A stretch of DNA of 64,000 nt from a virus (taxonomy: Duplodnaviria > Heunggongvirae > Uroviricota > Caudoviricetes), in IMG/VR virus record IMGVR_UViG_2645727901_000008, one strand, 5' to 3'. The translations under genes and the position numbers were made by a program. The notes beneath the pieces were generated by a model. It was not told the DNA's origin and made no database searches. It saw only the letters and a list, made by a program, of their open reading frames with translations. This document shows, one piece after another, positions 9,825 to 29,606 of this stretch (position 1 is the first letter of the stretch; every line of letters starts with the position of its first letter).

Positions 9825-10448
9825 ATGAAGGATGGTGTAGTGAAGTTAAGGGTTTTAGGGGCCGCGCTCGCGGCTATGTTGGGATGCGTATCTGCTAATA
9901 CTGCCAATGCAACTGCGTTACCTGCACAATTCAGGGCAGGGCAGCAGGTTATGAATAATGCTGGTGGGGATCATTCACAAGCGGCCATTATGGACTTTTG
10001 CAAGAGGGAGGGCATTCCATTACGGCCTGTTGGAACTCAGTTTATTGGTAAAACTGACTTTTGCGTTTTTGCATATACAGCATATCTGACGGACAAAGCT
10101 ATAACAAAAACAGGTTATTCAACCAAAGATACTCTTTCCAGATTAAGTCAGGGATGGCAGCAATTCGAAGTGTATCGCCAGCAAGGATTAGGTGAGTTAT
10201 TGCAACCACTTTTTATGCTTGCGTTGGTGCCCGAGGGGCAGCAATTTTTGGTTAAAAAGGGAATGCTTCGCCAAAGTGATATTGCCGGGTTCGATAGCAT
10301 GATGGCTTATGAGCGCAAACTAACCGAGCAGCGAAATAAAAAACCATCTGCTTCATGTGTGCAAAGTAAAACAGCAGAATACAGTGCAGTAGCCGGGCCT
10401 TTAGCCAAACAAATGGCAGAGCAATGGTGTAAAAAATACGGGCAATAA
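9825..10448 (+). CDS. Secreted/periplasmic hypothetical protein (moron)
   Basis: N-terminal signal peptide (LRVLGAALAAMLGCVSANTANA). AT-rich upstream region. Its own transcription unit with the next gene. Confidence 0.45.
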   Translation: MKDGVVKLRVLGAALAAMLGCVSANTANATALPAQFRAGQQVMNNAGGDHSQAAIMDFCKREGIPLRPVGTQFIGKTDFCVFAYTAYLTDKAITKTGYSTKDTLSRLSQGWQQFEVYRQQGLGELLQPLFMLALVPEGQQFLVKKGMLRQSDIAGFDSMMAYERKLTEQRNKKPSASCVQSKTAEYSAVAGPLAKQMAEQWCKKYGQ

Positions 10449-10468
10449 GTTACGCAGCGGAGGCAGAA

Positions 10469-10861
10469 TTGAAAAGATTGACTATTGCTTTACTGGCGTC
10501 TTTCCCTTTGATCGCGAGCGCCGGAAATTTACAAGTTAAGTGCGGTCGGTTTGATATAAAAATCTATCCAGATGCCATATTTCTGAATGGGAATAAGGTT
10601 GATAACGTACACCGAAAAACTAAATCTGACGTAATGAGCTATGTGTTCCAGGAGTATGCGGAGATGGGGGGAACTTACACGCTGTACTCGCTGGATGTTC
10701 CTTCTCGCGGTGATATGACATTATCCCATCAATGGCAGAACGCCGATGGCGAAGCTCTGCGCGAAGTTAAAACAGAAAAATGCGGCACTTTCCATTCTTT
10801 TAAAGGGAAAGTGCCAAATGTTAAATCTGTGCTTGAAAAACAGCGCGCAGGTGATTTTTAA
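10469..10861 (+). CDS. Secreted hypothetical protein (moron)
   Basis: Signal peptide MKRLTIALLASFPLIASA. GGAGG SD upstream. Confidence 0.45.
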   Translation: MKRLTIALLASFPLIASAGNLQVKCGRFDIKIYPDAIFLNGNKVDNVHRKTKSDVMSYVFQEYAEMGGTYTLYSLDVPSRGDMTLSHQWQNADGEALREVKTEKCGTFHSFKGKVPNVKSVLEKQRAGDF

Positions 10862-10884
10862 ACTGCGTTAGCACTTTGAACATG

Positions 10885-10916
10885 GCGACAACACATCTTG
10901 GTGGCTGCGTTGTCGC
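10885..10916 (+). terminator. Hairpin terminator after the secreted-protein pair
   Basis: GCGACAAC (10885-10892) pairs with GTTGTCGC (10909-10916), followed by a T-rich run. Confidence 0.45.
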
Positions 10917-10949
10917 TGTATGTTTTTATAATATAAAGCATTAAAGTTT

Positions 10950-11567
10950 TCATTTTTGTCGGATCTTTTCCAGCATATTTAATTCATTATCACTTTCTGC
11001 TGCTGAGACGGTTGGCCTCACATTTCCGAAATATTTCCTGTGAGACTCATGACTTATGTATTCACCGACAGTTTCATTCTTGAATATACGAATTTGACAT
11101 ATGCGAGATCCAACAATAAGTTCTACAGGGCTATTCCCATGATTAAATAACTCTAAAGATATACAGCCTCTGTACCCTGGTTGTATCATGGTATTTAATG
11201 AAAGACCAAGCCTTGTATAGCTGCTTCTGGACAATACATCAGCGTAGCAATCTGGTGGCAAACAAACATATTCTAATGTTGTTGCCAGTACCACTTGATT
11301 CGGGTAAACAATGAATCTATCCCCAAGATCTCTCCTTGTTTCCTGGAAAAATGTTCTGATTGGTTGATGAGTATCATTGTTTTTTGATGGAATTAACTCT
11401 ATTGACGGCTTCCTTGTCATAATAGACACTAAAAAATCGTAACCAAGTCTAAGGTCTATGGTGAAGTTCCCAATTTGGTTTTTATTTAGAAGAGGTTCAA
11501 TGAACAACGACTCAGGTTCTTCTGATTCATAATATTGCAGCAATTCAGCTTTGCTTAGGAGATTCAT
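10950..11567 (-). CDS. Minimal dCTP deaminase / dUTPase-fold enzyme (Dcd-like), third gene of the cassette
   Basis: SRSSYTRLGL versus E. coli Dcd GRSSLARLGL. IQPGYRGCISLELFN versus IDPGWSGCIVLEFYN, including the catalytic Glu. TIDLRLG versus TVDVRLG. ATG 11567 overlaps the upstream stop (ATGA) and has a GGAG SD. Confidence 0.7.
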   Translation of the reverse strand: MNLLSKAELLQYYESEEPESLFIEPLLNKNQIGNFTIDLRLGYDFLVSIMTRKPSIELIPSKNNDTHQPIRTFFQETRRDLGDRFIVYPNQVVLATTLEYVCLPPDCYADVLSRSSYTRLGLSLNTMIQPGYRGCISLELFNHGNSPVELIVGSRICQIRIFKNETVGEYISHESHRKYFGNVRPTVSAAESDNELNMLEKIRQK

Positions 11568-12637
11568 TGTGCACTCCATTTTTCAAGAATCATTACGTTT
11601 CGAATCGATTTTTCAACCAAATCATTTATAGTTTTTTCTATGGCTTCTTGTGACAACCCAGACCATATACCCGTAGGTTTTTCCCATTCAGAGCATAAGT
11701 ACTGCCAGCTGCTGTTAATAAAAGCATGCATTTCATTGTGGTCGCGAATAACAAAAGGACGCACATTATCAAAAGCTGATTTCACATCAAGCAAAGGTGT
11801 CGGCAATGTCAAACAAGGAGAAATAATCTGCCCACCATTATGTAAGGCTGATATCACAGCATTGAACATGCCAACAACTGGATTTTCCACTTTGTTCAAA
11901 AAGTCGCTTACAATTTTAACTCTATCTTCTGTGGATGGGTGAGTATAGCTTGCAGGATGAGAGCCAGCTAATTTGTATAAGAAATCTACCCCACTTTTTC
12001 CAATAAATTGGGCACTAAATAGATCTGCAAAATATTCTCTGCAATGATTTATCCAAATAACATCAGGTAGATTACTCCATTCTGGTCCAGGAAGTGTGCC
12101 TTTGTCCTTGGAACGATAGTTAAGACAGGCAAGCTCAGAAATACCTTTGCTAATATCAACGAAATGTCCCAATTCGTGATATAAAGGTATAGAGCATAAT
12201 GGTCGTCTTCTGTACATTTCAGGTAATGAAATCTGAATTAATTCGACATCGAATTTGACATTTAAAACTTCGTCAAATAAAGAATACAAATTCTTGTTTA
12301 CAGACTTAAAATAAAACCCATGCATATCTGGAGATAGGGCTGTGGTTATAAGTGTTTTTTCACTTATCCATTTTTTACAGGCATCATTTAAGCAATAGAC
12401 AATCTCGTAGGGAATTTTCTTTGTAGTACTGCCAGTGAAAAAATTAACTGCATCGGTGATAAAAAAAGTACAATCCGCAATTATTTTATCAGCAACATTC
12501 ACATGGTTTTCATAGAGCTTATCCACCGCTTCTTGTAGAACAGCAAGATATTCATGCATGTCTTTAGAAAAATAGGGAGATTCTGATATCTCCCTTAGCT
12601 TATTTCGAACTAATGTAAGTTGTGTAAATGCAAGCAT
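11564..12637 (-). CDS. Soluble M48-like zinc metallopeptidase-motif protein (HExxH...ExxAD...HPxxxxR)
   Basis: YHELGHFVD, then REYFADLFSA, then SYTHPSTEDRV, in the order I recall for HtpX/Ste24-type peptidases. No obvious TM segment. AT-rich. Confidence 0.5.
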   Translation of the reverse strand: MLAFTQLTLVRNKLREISESPYFSKDMHEYLAVLQEAVDKLYENHVNVADKIIADCTFFITDAVNFFTGSTTKKIPYEIVYCLNDACKKWISEKTLITTALSPDMHGFYFKSVNKNLYSLFDEVLNVKFDVELIQISLPEMYRRRPLCSIPLYHELGHFVDISKGISELACLNYRSKDKGTLPGPEWSNLPDVIWINHCREYFADLFSAQFIGKSGVDFLYKLAGSHPASYTHPSTEDRVKIVSDFLNKVENPVVGMFNAVISALHNGGQIISPCLTLPTPLLDVKSAFDNVRPFVIRDHNEMHAFINSSWQYLCSEWEKPTGIWSGLSQEAIEKTINDLVEKSIRNVMILEKWSAQ

Positions 12638-12942
12638 TAAATGTACTCTAATACATTCCGGGCCATTACGGGTTCTAACATATCTTCGCTAGTTACTTTG
12701 GTTAGCACCTGGGCGAGCGCCTTAGTGTGGCGTATCTCTACCGCGAGCGAGATGGACTCTCTGTGAGAAGGAATCTGTAATTGATCACCTTTATCTACAC
12801 TTAAGTTTGAGGCTTCTCTGATCACCTCATAAACCCGTAACTTTAACTGCTGTGACACTTCTTGTTGAGATGCTATAAGCTGAAGTACAGTCTTGATCAA
12901 CTTCAAAGAATCAGAAGCTTGCTGAGGAACCGCATAGAGCAT
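12637..12942 (-). CDS. Small helical protein, first gene of the cassette
   Basis: 101 aa with an AAAGGAGGGG SD. Its stop overlaps the next start (TAATG). Confidence 0.4.
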   Translation of the reverse strand: MLYAVPQQASDSLKLIKTVLQLIASQQEVSQQLKLRVYEVIREASNLSVDKGDQLQIPSHRESISLAVEIRHTKALAQVLTKVTSEDMLEPVMARNVLEYI

Positions 12943-13077
12943 AACCCCTCCTTTCCCTTATCTATAACCGCTTTCTTTTTTCTGTGTATGTTAAAAGTAG
13001 AAGCGGTTTTTACCTTTTGTAATATATATAGTGTCTAAAACTAACTTTGGCACTATATATGGCATGATATCTATGTT

Positions 13078-13123
13078 TTAAAGACACAAAAGCTCTGTTA
13101 AAACAGAGCTTTTGTGTCTTTAA
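13078..13123. repeat. Perfect 22-bp inverted repeat (2-nt spacer) upstream of the cassette
   Basis: TTAAAGACACAAAAGCTCTGTT (13078-13099), aa, AACAGAGCTTTTGTGTCTTTAA (13102-13123). Confidence 0.8.
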
Positions 13124-13267
13124 CTTGATCATTTTCTCGCTGAAGTGTATGTCAGGCTTAGCTCATAATCAAGTTGCTTCCAAGCTAAAAATGAGCTAGC
13201 TCCCTGAAACACTAAGAGCGGGGTGTTTCATTTATTAGCGTTGGGCCTGACGGTGTGTAGGTGAATT

Positions 13268-13555
13268 TTAGCTCATTACTCGATAACGACGGGGAATGGA
13301 ATTCTCCATCAGGCCACGAATTACTCCCGCCTCACGTAGTTCCTCTGTCTCCCAGTATCTGTTTGTCACCAGATCGAGGCTGGCTATGACCTTGTGCCGG
13401 TCATTCGGCATAGCTAATTTTTCTGCTATAACCATCAGTGAAAACTCTTCATCCAGTAGAATTTGATAGCAGTTTTTTGATAGTTCCACTTCCCTTATGA
13501 GACTGAAACGTCGCTGGATTGTGGCAGTAGAGTAAGTGAAATCTATTTTCTTCAT
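13268..13555 (-). CDS. Hypothetical protein, distal gene of immI-like module 1
   Basis: 95-aa ORF downstream of the antirepressor gene, after an intercistronic hairpin. Confidence 0.35.
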   Translation of the reverse strand: MKKIDFTYSTATIQRRFSLIREVELSKNCYQILLDEEFSLMVIAEKLAMPNDRHKVIASLDLVTNRYWETEELREAGVIRGLMENSIPRRYRVMS

Positions 13556-29111: not shown

Positions 29112-29606
29112 TTATAACTTTTCGTACTGAAGCGGTGAACGCTTAATTTCAAAGTGGCCTTCCGATGTGCTACCAAAGCCACCAGCACCACGTTCCGTTT
29201 CGTTGAGTTCCTCAACCTCGACTAGTGAGACTTGTTCAACACGCTCAAAAATGCCTTGCATGACAGCCATTCCTGGCTTGAGACAAACGCCTTCCCCGCC
29301 GGGATCAGTAATCAGTTTTGCCATGATTTCACCGCGATAATCGGAGTCGATAATTCCTACGCAGTTAGCCAGGCGAGTATGTTTTTTGCAGCCCAATCCG
29401 GATCGCGGATAGAGTTTCAGACACCAGCCGGGCGGGATCTCCATAGCCAGTCCGGTATACACCCACCAGCTTGAGGAAATTGCACCATTGCTATCGACGC
29501 ATGTTTTTATTTCAACAGCCTCAAAATCCATCGCCGCCGATCCGGAGGTGGCATAAGCTGGAAGTTTTGCTGCCGGATGTAGGCGTTTCACTTTTACGTA
29601 AATCAT
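29112..29606 (-). CDS. dut: dUTPase
   Basis: AMDFEAVE, PRSGLG, GIIDSDYRGEI and RGAGGFGSTS motifs. Confidence 0.85.
   Translation of the reverse strand: MIYVKVKRLHPAAKLPAYATSGSAAMDFEAVEIKTCVDSNGAISSSWWVYTGLAMEIPPGWCLKLYPRSGLGCKKHTRLANCVGIIDSDYRGEIMAKLITDPGGEGVCLKPGMAVMQGIFERVEQVSLVEVEELNETERGAGGFGSTSEGHFEIKRSPLQYEKL

Follow-up and report, generated by a model that had tools for sequence, protein, structure and literature searches.

The DNA analysed here (hereafter the window) is a stretch of 64,000 nt from a virus of the Caudoviricetes, IMG/VR record IMGVR_UViG_2645727901_000008. It contains a cassette of three minus-strand genes, named g1, g2 and g3, which encode a small acidic orphan protein, a putative soluble zincin metallopeptidase-type protein of a new family, and a homolog of the dCTP deaminase Dcd, respectively. 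The three genes are translationally coupled and are co-inherited across bacterial phyla. We tentatively posit that they constitute an autonomous, mobile three-protein conflict module, which may act in anti-phage defence or superinfection exclusion or in the manner of a toxin-antitoxin (TA) system, and which would be carried as a moron in the present case.

Architecture and proteins of the triad

In the window, g1 spans positions 12637-12942 (101 aa), g2 spans 11564-12637 (357 aa) and the open reading frame (ORF) of g3 spans 10950-11579. Homologs keep the ATG at 11567 as the start of g3, which gives a gene at 10950-11567 and a protein of 205 aa, in agreement with the RefSeq/GenBank annotation of identical plasmids. 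Residues of g3 are numbered on this form, Q129 being Q133 of the 209-aa ORF. A preliminary description of this DNA had reported three co-directional ORFs with overlapping stop and start codons within an AT-rich block, and both observations are borne out. The stop codon of g1 and the start codon of g2 share the letters TAATG, those of g2 and g3 share ATGA, and the GC content of the g1-g2-g3 block is 0.34-0.41 compared with 0.44-0.56 in the flanks.

The same arrangement is found in Dickeya, Aeromonas, Rhizobium, Geobacter and Proteus, where g2 comes after an ORF of 101-108 aa and directly before Dcd, with overlapping junctions. When one genome per species was scanned, 60 loci were recovered, which belong to Alpha-, Beta-, Gamma- and Deltaproteobacteria, Bacteroidota and Leptospirales. 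Dcd directly follows g2 in 56 of them, including two in which both are fused in a single ORF (L046 and L062) and g1 stays a separate gene upstream; the four exceptions are two contig ends (L021 and L061) and two loci with no Dcd (L023 and L065). The module is overwhelmingly chromosomal in the scanned bacteria, which also have a housekeeping dcd; the host retains its own copy of that gene. Altogether, at least 23 distinct natural g2-Dcd fusion proteins of 547-640 aa were found, down to 50% identity to the query fusion, and the predicted structure of the fusion has a pTM of 0.83. Because of these natural fusions, g2 and g3 very probably form one complex, and since Dcd enzymes are trimers, its stoichiometry would be about 3:3. 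Conservation is highest in g3 (54-81%), followed by g2 (34-67%) and g1 (20-64%). Effectors are usually more conserved than regulators or sensors.

According to its profile matches, g3 is unambiguously a Dcd-family protein, and its deamination residues are intact. It scores above the curated cut-offs of both PF22769 (E 1.3e-30, 107 bits versus 27) and TIGR02274 (113.3 bits versus 92.8). Its closest solved relatives are dCTP deaminases (PDB Dcd 4xjc at 1.9e-16), and its identity to E. coli Dcd is 35% across 142 residues. The strings SRSSYTRLGL and IQPGYRGCISLELFN, which had been read before as those of a Dcd-fold active site including the catalytic Glu, indeed align to R110, S111, S112, R115 and E138 of the E. 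coli enzyme. The equivalents of these five residues are 97-100% conserved among 59 distinct system-linked Dcd homologs, and the C-terminal lid residues K178, Y179 and S188 (E. coli numbering) are likewise conserved.

Compared to housekeeping Dcd (E. coli Dcd, PDB 1xs1; TIGR02274/PF22769), g3 thus belongs to the same fold family and keeps the catalytic Ser/Arg/Glu, the RSS phosphate-binding motif and the K-Y…S of the lid, but it differs in several respects. The motif-III Asp of Dcd (D128), which is salt-bridged to R126 in the monofunctional enzyme, is replaced by Gln in 56 of the 59 homologs (Q129 in g3), and R126 aligns to a Met in g3. This Asp is conserved across the dUTPase superfamily and is catalytic for dUTP hydrolysis (PMC3360063). 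Because the hydrolytic Asp of the superfamily is a Gln here, we infer that g3 is a deaminase-only variant, the product of which would be dUTP and not dUMP. The g3 family is further marked by a conserved FQxTRRD insert and by a C-terminal extension of ~12 residues with an invariant Leu, which E. coli Dcd lacks. Unlike the housekeeping enzyme, it is accessory and mobile and is always encoded beside a zincin or fused to it.

The second protein, g2, carries HELGH (residues 154-158), REYFAD and THPSTEDR, all of which fall in columns that are invariant among 67 diverse family members (H154, E155, H158, E201, D205, H233, P234 and R239). The set of features typical for M48 peptidases, namely HExxH, a downstream Glu ligand and a C-terminal HPxxxxR, is therefore present in g2, and no segment of transmembrane-grade hydrophobicity was detected (maximum 19-residue Kyte-Doolittle score 1.18). 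The preliminary description had been right about this motif order and about the lack of membrane segments, but membership of M48 did not hold: against Pfam M48 (PF01435), g2 reaches 16.1 bits compared with a gathering cut-off of 20.3, over residues 198-243 only, and a Foldseek search of the PDB returned no neighbour at E ≤ 1e-3. Sub-threshold M48 matches at E ≤ 0.01 occur in 11 of the 67 family members, the best at 1.1e-4, and ATLF matches occur in nine. No significant Pfam, NCBIfam or PADLOC family was found for g2, and neither the single sequence nor the family profile gave anything credible when searched against solved structures. The family consists of 585 clusters at 50% identity, 218 of them at E ≤ 1e-30, among 1.84 billion representatives.

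An AlphaFold model of g2 is very confident (pLDDT 95.2, pTM 0.93). The protein is read as a putative M48-like catalytic core between two large helical domains, one at either terminus, that are peculiar to the family. Structure comparisons give mixed support for a link to M48. We conclude that g2 is probably soluble and represents a new zincin family with motif set and core of the M48 type, for which zinc binding and proteolysis are predicted; its link to M48 is distant only, and it is not an M48 peptidase as Pfam defines it. From the M48/M56 gluzincins (Ste24/ZMPSTE24, HtpX, BepA and BlaR1-type sensor proteases), it stands apart by its score below the Pfam gathering threshold, by the lack of a sequence or Foldseek match to any solved structure, by the absence of membrane helices, and by its helical domains and dedicated Dcd partner.

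Lit, a zincin of the e14 prophage, causes abortive infection via cleavage of EF-Tu. It would resemble g2 in being a prophage-borne soluble zinc metallopeptidase with a role in phage exclusion, but it is a single-gene system with no nucleotide-enzyme partner, and no homology to g2 could be detected. An identity of g2 with Lit was rejected, as the g2 family profile and e14 Lit gave 9% by hhalign with HExxH unaligned, and PADLOC returned no Lit match for g2. According to the supplement of PMC13092281, Lit also scores against Peptidase_M48 by HHblits.

With its catalytic motifs invariant, g2 might itself be the effector, cleaving an essential protein of host or phage much as Lit does, with the Dcd-fold trimer of g3 acting as sensor of an infection nucleotide or a phage protein and switching g2 on. 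Trimers of the dUTPase fold can signal, phage Dut binding the Stl repressor of SaPI as stated in PMC5593958. The g2-Dcd fusion would suit a sensor-effector pair equally well, and the two loci that hold g1 and g2 without Dcd are also in line with this idea. We nevertheless regard it as rather unlikely. The Ser/Arg/Glu triad and the phosphate-binding residues of g3, which a pure sensor would not need, are 97-100% conserved, g3 is the most conserved part of the module whereas sensors usually diverge fastest, and g2 is unrelated to Lit in the profile comparison.

The third component, g1, is an orphan that matched no known family and has no relative among solved structures. The g1 family is acidic (median pI ~5.2), and its homologs have the N-terminal pattern M-[LYFI]-x-[AS] in common; the count of this motif is partly circular, because the start codons of 12 Bacteroidota ORFs were picked by a motif-based rule. 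The g1 profile matches every proteobacterial locus. At the Bacteroidota loci, an ORF of ~100 aa abuts g2 and is homologous to g1 over its full length (hhalign 80.6%, E 1.3e-5). A role of g1 as a helix-turn-helix (HTH) repressor is unlikely, given an acidic family, no PDB relative and a LacI-HTH match at E 0.092 as the only hit of this kind. A Csx1 match in PADLOC at E 0.015 was treated as noise.

Mobility and genomic context

The window represents a D6-like phage-plasmid, the flanks of which are ~95% identical to Escherichia phage D6. D6 is without the cassette, and the interval from mat to the pmgF/ant/icd (immI-like) module is occupied there by a simB-like gene together with orf80; the stretch diverging from D6 comprises positions 9883-13331 of the window. 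In a closer relative, plasmid pIso00270_02 (NZ_CP095127, locus L071), the same two plus-strand genes that precede the cassette in the window run directly into pmgF. BLASTN breakpoints against this collinear plasmid delimit an inserted segment at 10864-13280, the 2,417 bp of which stand in place of 31 bp, a clean insertion with limits very close to those of the block first described. The insertion point corresponds to the variable position that holds the simB-like superimmunity gene in D6.

The cassette was found in 12 PLSDB plasmids from E. coli and Salmonella. In comparison, most of the neighbouring immI-like module is present in 84 plasmids, and the dut gene of this lineage in 127. Among complete E. 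coli genomes, eight of 5,426 carry the cassette, all of them on plasmids. In the INPHARED phage collection there was no megablast match to the cassette (window 10850-13300), and D6 matched the flanks only. PHROGs v4 contains near-identical full-length families for g1 and g2 (phrog_27938 and phrog_24479) and a 79-aa C-terminal fragment family for g3 (phrog_23419). A survey of D6- and P1-like genomes for variation at this junction had been put forward as a check. The block does vary, with presence in about 12 of 84-127 plasmids and absence from D6, from P1 and from an otherwise identical plasmid. The cassette is therefore accessory, has been acquired recently and horizontally, and does not belong to the core gene set of P1 and D6.

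The phage also carries a dut gene, which had been proposed as a buffer against self-toxicity. Its presence on the minus strand at 29112-29606 was confirmed (PF00692, E 5.7e-15), but its co-acquisition with the cassette was not. It is found in D6 and in the 127 plasmids, mostly without the cassette. Because dut is core in D6 and in more than 100 plasmids that lack the triad, it is a lineage gene unlinked to the cassette and not a safeguard acquired together with it.

Dcd of phages is assumed to supply dTTP, and g3 could in principle be such a nucleotide-metabolism helper for the replication of the element, converting dCTP to dUTP, which would then proceed with dut via dUMP to dTTP. PHROG 1663, annotated as 'dCTP deaminase', matches g3 (6.5e-32), the phage has a dut, and the cassette is AT-rich. 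Thymidylate metabolism needs neither a zincin nor an orphan protein, however, and the Dcd of the triad is obligatorily linked and even fused to the former. The module is moreover overwhelmingly chromosomal in bacteria with a housekeeping dcd and almost absent from viral contigs, D6 and most of its relatives replicate without the cassette, and dut is not linked to it. A metabolic role of this kind appears very unlikely to us.

The genomic contexts of the triad elsewhere are rich in defence and mobile-element genes, a trend that is qualitatively strong. In Proteus (L077 1-4104), the triad lies between a complete QatABCD system and an integrase, and in Rhizobium between an integrase and a type I restriction-modification (RM) system. 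In Dickeya (L003 7779-9521), it is located on an integrase/AlpA island, where its neighbour is an RmrA/CapP-like HTH-M78 gene that is paired with a 199-aa protein. A qualitative survey of the genes around about 30 loci, 285 in all, comprised integrases and Tn7, Mu and IS transposases, along with CapP/RmrA-type M78 peptidases (RosmerTA-like), BrxL and PglZ (BREX), a DRT reverse transcriptase, type I and II methyltransferases, IetAS, LmuA (Lamassu) and MADS components. The preliminary description had proposed a candidate defence or exclusion system, and triads beside Qat, BREX, RM, DRT and integrases agree with this in a qualitative sense.

Of about 58 loci, 13 (~22%), which come from four bacterial classes, have a Type I Bub-like operon next to the triad, at a distance of 13 nt to ~4 kb. 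These operons comprise Multi_ubiq, Prok-E2_E, a JAB-ThiF fusion, a CapH-like HTH protein and a 59-aa protein matching the PADLOC candidate PDC-S38, and are located at L008 7774-10523, L024 7728-9239, L036 6172-9478, L039 12489-15470 and L041 11675-14752, with further cases at L011, L017, L025-L027, L029, L052 and L065. Their position and strand relative to the triad vary, and their JAB-E1 genes are closely related (E at most 1e-139). Seven more loci have a shorter ThiF gene nearby. Two 2024 preprints on Type I Bub operons report that the targets and the role of Bub are not known and mention no deaminase, and no paper linking Bub operons to the triad was found in the literature.

The adjacency may reflect functional coupling or a shared island. 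If it were coupling, the triad could be an accessory or effector module of Type I Bub-like operons (Ubl-E2, JAB-E1 and CapH/CapP) that stands alone only secondarily, as in the window. The recurrence of JAB-E1 genes near the triad in four classes speaks for this, together with the seven shorter ThiF genes and with a match to the architecture of Type I Bub operons, the targets and effectors of which are unidentified in the preprints. Most triads, including those of the window, Dickeya, Proteus, Aeromonas and Rhizobium, nevertheless lie away from any Bub operon. Measured against the 544 operons on the Bub side, such neighbourhoods would be rare, and the variable order and orientation fit a shared island hotspot. 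We consider a role as a Bub module to be quite unlikely.

Leader and flanking elements

Upstream of g1, the cassette has a structured leader. A palindrome at 13078-13123 consists of two arms of 22 nt (13078-13099 and 13102-13123) that are 100% complementary, with a predicted fold energy of about -33 kcal/mol and an inner stem AGCTCTG/CAGAGCT that is followed by a U-rich tract. It moves together with the cassette and looks like a bidirectional terminator-like hairpin on the sense strand, possibly an insulator or attenuator. At the DNA level, window 10964-13125 and its Dickeya counterpart are 69% identical, and the palindrome itself is 93% conserved there; across Dickeya and another D6-like phage its conservation is 93-100%. 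A universal element was rejected, as the palindrome is confined to the gammaproteobacterial lineage and the other loci have ordinary terminators or nothing at this place. No Rfam family came near threshold for it.

A second inverted repeat on the minus strand (13024-13060, ATATATAGTG…CACTATATAT) is operator-like. Its left arm overlaps a -10-like TATAGT (13057-13052), and a -35-like TTAAAA lies at 13081-13076. Just upstream of the palindrome, a TTGACA-like block on the minus strand (13128-13155) reads CTGACA in the window and is accompanied by a weak -10, AATGAT. A Shine-Dalgarno sequence AAGGAGG (12947-12953, minus strand) precedes the start of g1, with a GGAGG/GGGGG block that is kept in five lineages. 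A five-way alignment of the leaders from the window, Dickeya, Proteus, an ENA contig and Aeromonas keeps four elements, namely the TTGACA-like block, the palindrome core with its U-rich tract, the inverted repeat ATATATAGT…ACTATATAT, which overlaps the -10-like TATAGT in the alignment as well, and the Shine-Dalgarno sequence, which is a strong one. In a promoter scan, the number of sigma-70-like sites was not above shuffled expectation, and the promoter assignments given here consequently derive from the five-way footprint alone.

In the two inverted repeats together, 14 pairs are changed on both sides, compared with 6.0 ± 1.8 in shuffles (0 of 500 reach 14), and the arms pair at 89% versus 29-57% when the partners are slid; the five sequences cannot tell an RNA hairpin from a protein-bound operator. 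In the palindrome, compensatory changes are found in Proteus and Aeromonas. Repeats kept by compensatory changes are as expected of a tightly controlled and potentially toxic operon. These alignments are most simply read as a terminator with an insulating or attenuating role and, behind it, a promoter under regulation, so that the cassette would be an operon of its own under tight control.

TA operons, too, typically combine translational coupling and a tightly structured leader with a small acidic gene upstream of larger ones. It is conceivable that the triad merely stabilizes plasmids and islands as an addiction module and has no dedicated anti-phage role. In that case, g1 would be a labile antitoxin and g2-g3 would be the toxin, and the deaminase would be set free once the element is lost. 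The location of the cassette on a low-copy phage-plasmid and on integrative islands would agree with this. On the other hand, plasmids with the cassette already hold RelE/HigA-type modules, most D6-like plasmids do without it, it is inserted at the position of the simB-like superimmunity gene of D6, and chromosomal copies lie beside bona fide defence systems. TA and defence roles can also coexist, and we judge addiction as the sole function to be improbable.

The 3' side of the cassette is bounded by a hairpin at 10885-10918 (plus strand, -20 kcal/mol). Both boundary hairpins noted before do exist. The T-run of this one lies on the plus strand, and the hairpin therefore mainly terminates the convergent pair of plus-strand genes, which putatively encode secreted proteins. 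This pair consists of two ORFs at 9825-10448 and 10469-10861. Their products, of 207 and 130 aa, match no Pfam family and begin with signal-peptide-like N-termini. Because D6-like plasmids have the pair whether or not they carry the triad (it is present in L071, which lacks the triad), and because D6 has the simB-like gene instead, it is a separate variable unit at the junction of the triad. On the opposite side, beyond the conserved leader, the part of the insertion at 13126-13280 includes another inverted repeat (around 13157-13210) as well as a terminator-like hairpin on the plus strand (13205-13230), and it alters the 3' end of the pmgF-like gene in comparison with plasmids lacking the cassette. 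A terminator-like palindrome within the coding region of g2 (12574-12595, AGGGAGAT…ATCTCCCT) scores on both strands and is probably a chance match.

Proposed function and relation to known systems

If the triad is a conflict module as posited above, the Dcd homolog g3 would be its effector. Once released, it would convert dCTP to dUTP with no onward step to dUMP, the hydrolytic Asp being replaced by Gln, and replication would be starved of dCTP while the cell would be flooded with dUTP. The peptidase g2 and the acidic g1 would hold g3 off until a trigger is perceived. We speculate that activation could be protease-gated: g1 might be an inhibitor or pseudo-substrate that is removed by g2, or g2 might process the extra C-terminal tail of the Dcd. 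A more far-reaching version seems doubtful to us. In it, triads would form a tripartite class of immune or toxin systems, in which zincin and Dcd are joined in a holoenzyme that depletes dCTP while flooding the cell with dUTP, g1 is the plug or substrate of the peptidase and thereby the switch, and about one fifth of the loci are wired to Bub.

The architecture of the triad is well supported, and its function and mechanism are what we infer from it. Several points weigh against a defensive effector of this type. The defence reading is guilt by association, because none of the three proteins is represented by a model in PADLOC-DB 2.0. Among the 2.9 million viral contigs of IMG/VR, only three have a g2 relative, another D6-like phage being one of them, and the system is thus not a common phage moron. 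The replacement of Asp by Gln could change substrate binding in ways that sequence cannot predict. Finally, g1 and g2 are found without a downstream Dcd at L023 (9676-11077) and L065 (9490-10939), which could represent decay or an alternative partner for the peptidase module; at L065, a JAB-E1 gene occupies the place after g2.

Defensive dCTP deaminases have been described that combine a zinc-dependent cytosine-deaminase domain and an N-terminal kinase-like domain in one polypeptide (Tal et al. preprint), and AvcD of the AvcID type III TA system is a deoxycytidylate deaminase with an RNA antitoxin. Common to these and the triad would be the proposed depletion of dCTP upon infection, and AvcD, too, is restrained by a dedicated antitoxin. 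In contrast to them, g3 has neither a zinc-dependent cytidine/dCMP-deaminase domain nor a kinase-like domain; it matches DCD/dUTPase-type models only and is of the trimeric Dcd type, and its partners are a small protein and a peptidase. The earlier view of g3 as the bare core of these described deaminases is thus contradicted by the different fold. Because the folds are unrelated, the likeness would be a functional analogy at most. The 'dUTPase' defence domain of DefensePredictor was set aside, as it belongs to another system composed of a MazG-C kinase, a dUTPase and aGPT-Pplase.

A zinc peptidase and a small partner that together control a toxic immune module are also known from CapP/CapH, ImmA/ImmR and RmrA of RosmerTA. 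Those peptidases belong to M78 (PF06114) and are paired with an HTH repressor, whereas g2 has no PF06114 match and g1 is acidic with no significant HTH. Furthermore, g1 and g2 are co-transcribed with the putative effector and not divergent from it.

No meaningful model match for g1, g2 or g3 was found in PADLOC-DB 2.0, literature full-text searches returned no description of the triad, and its proteins are named only 'hypothetical protein' and 'dCTP deaminase' in databases. This agrees with the initial impression that no named system has this composition. We rate the triad as undescribed, and as a candidate that, judged from its sequences, would belong with the conflict systems that target the nucleotide pool.

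Clinical and livestock isolates of E. coli and Salmonella contain D6-like phage-plasmids that differ in the presence or absence of the cassette, which provides isogenic pairs for the study of exclusion between phages. If the triad is wired to Bub, it would be the first candidate effector of that pathway, and the adjacency could help to reveal what Bub pathways control. The Asp-to-Gln variant predicts the formation of dUTP over dUMP, which would lead to dCTP starvation together with uracil incorporation and to a toxicity that depends on Ung and Dut. Should the proposed function be true, immunity by attack on the nucleotide pool would have arisen from unrelated folds of deaminases on at least two occasions, and the trimeric Dcd/dUTPase fold would join the defence effectors under a new control logic, that of a dedicated soluble zincin with a small partner protein.

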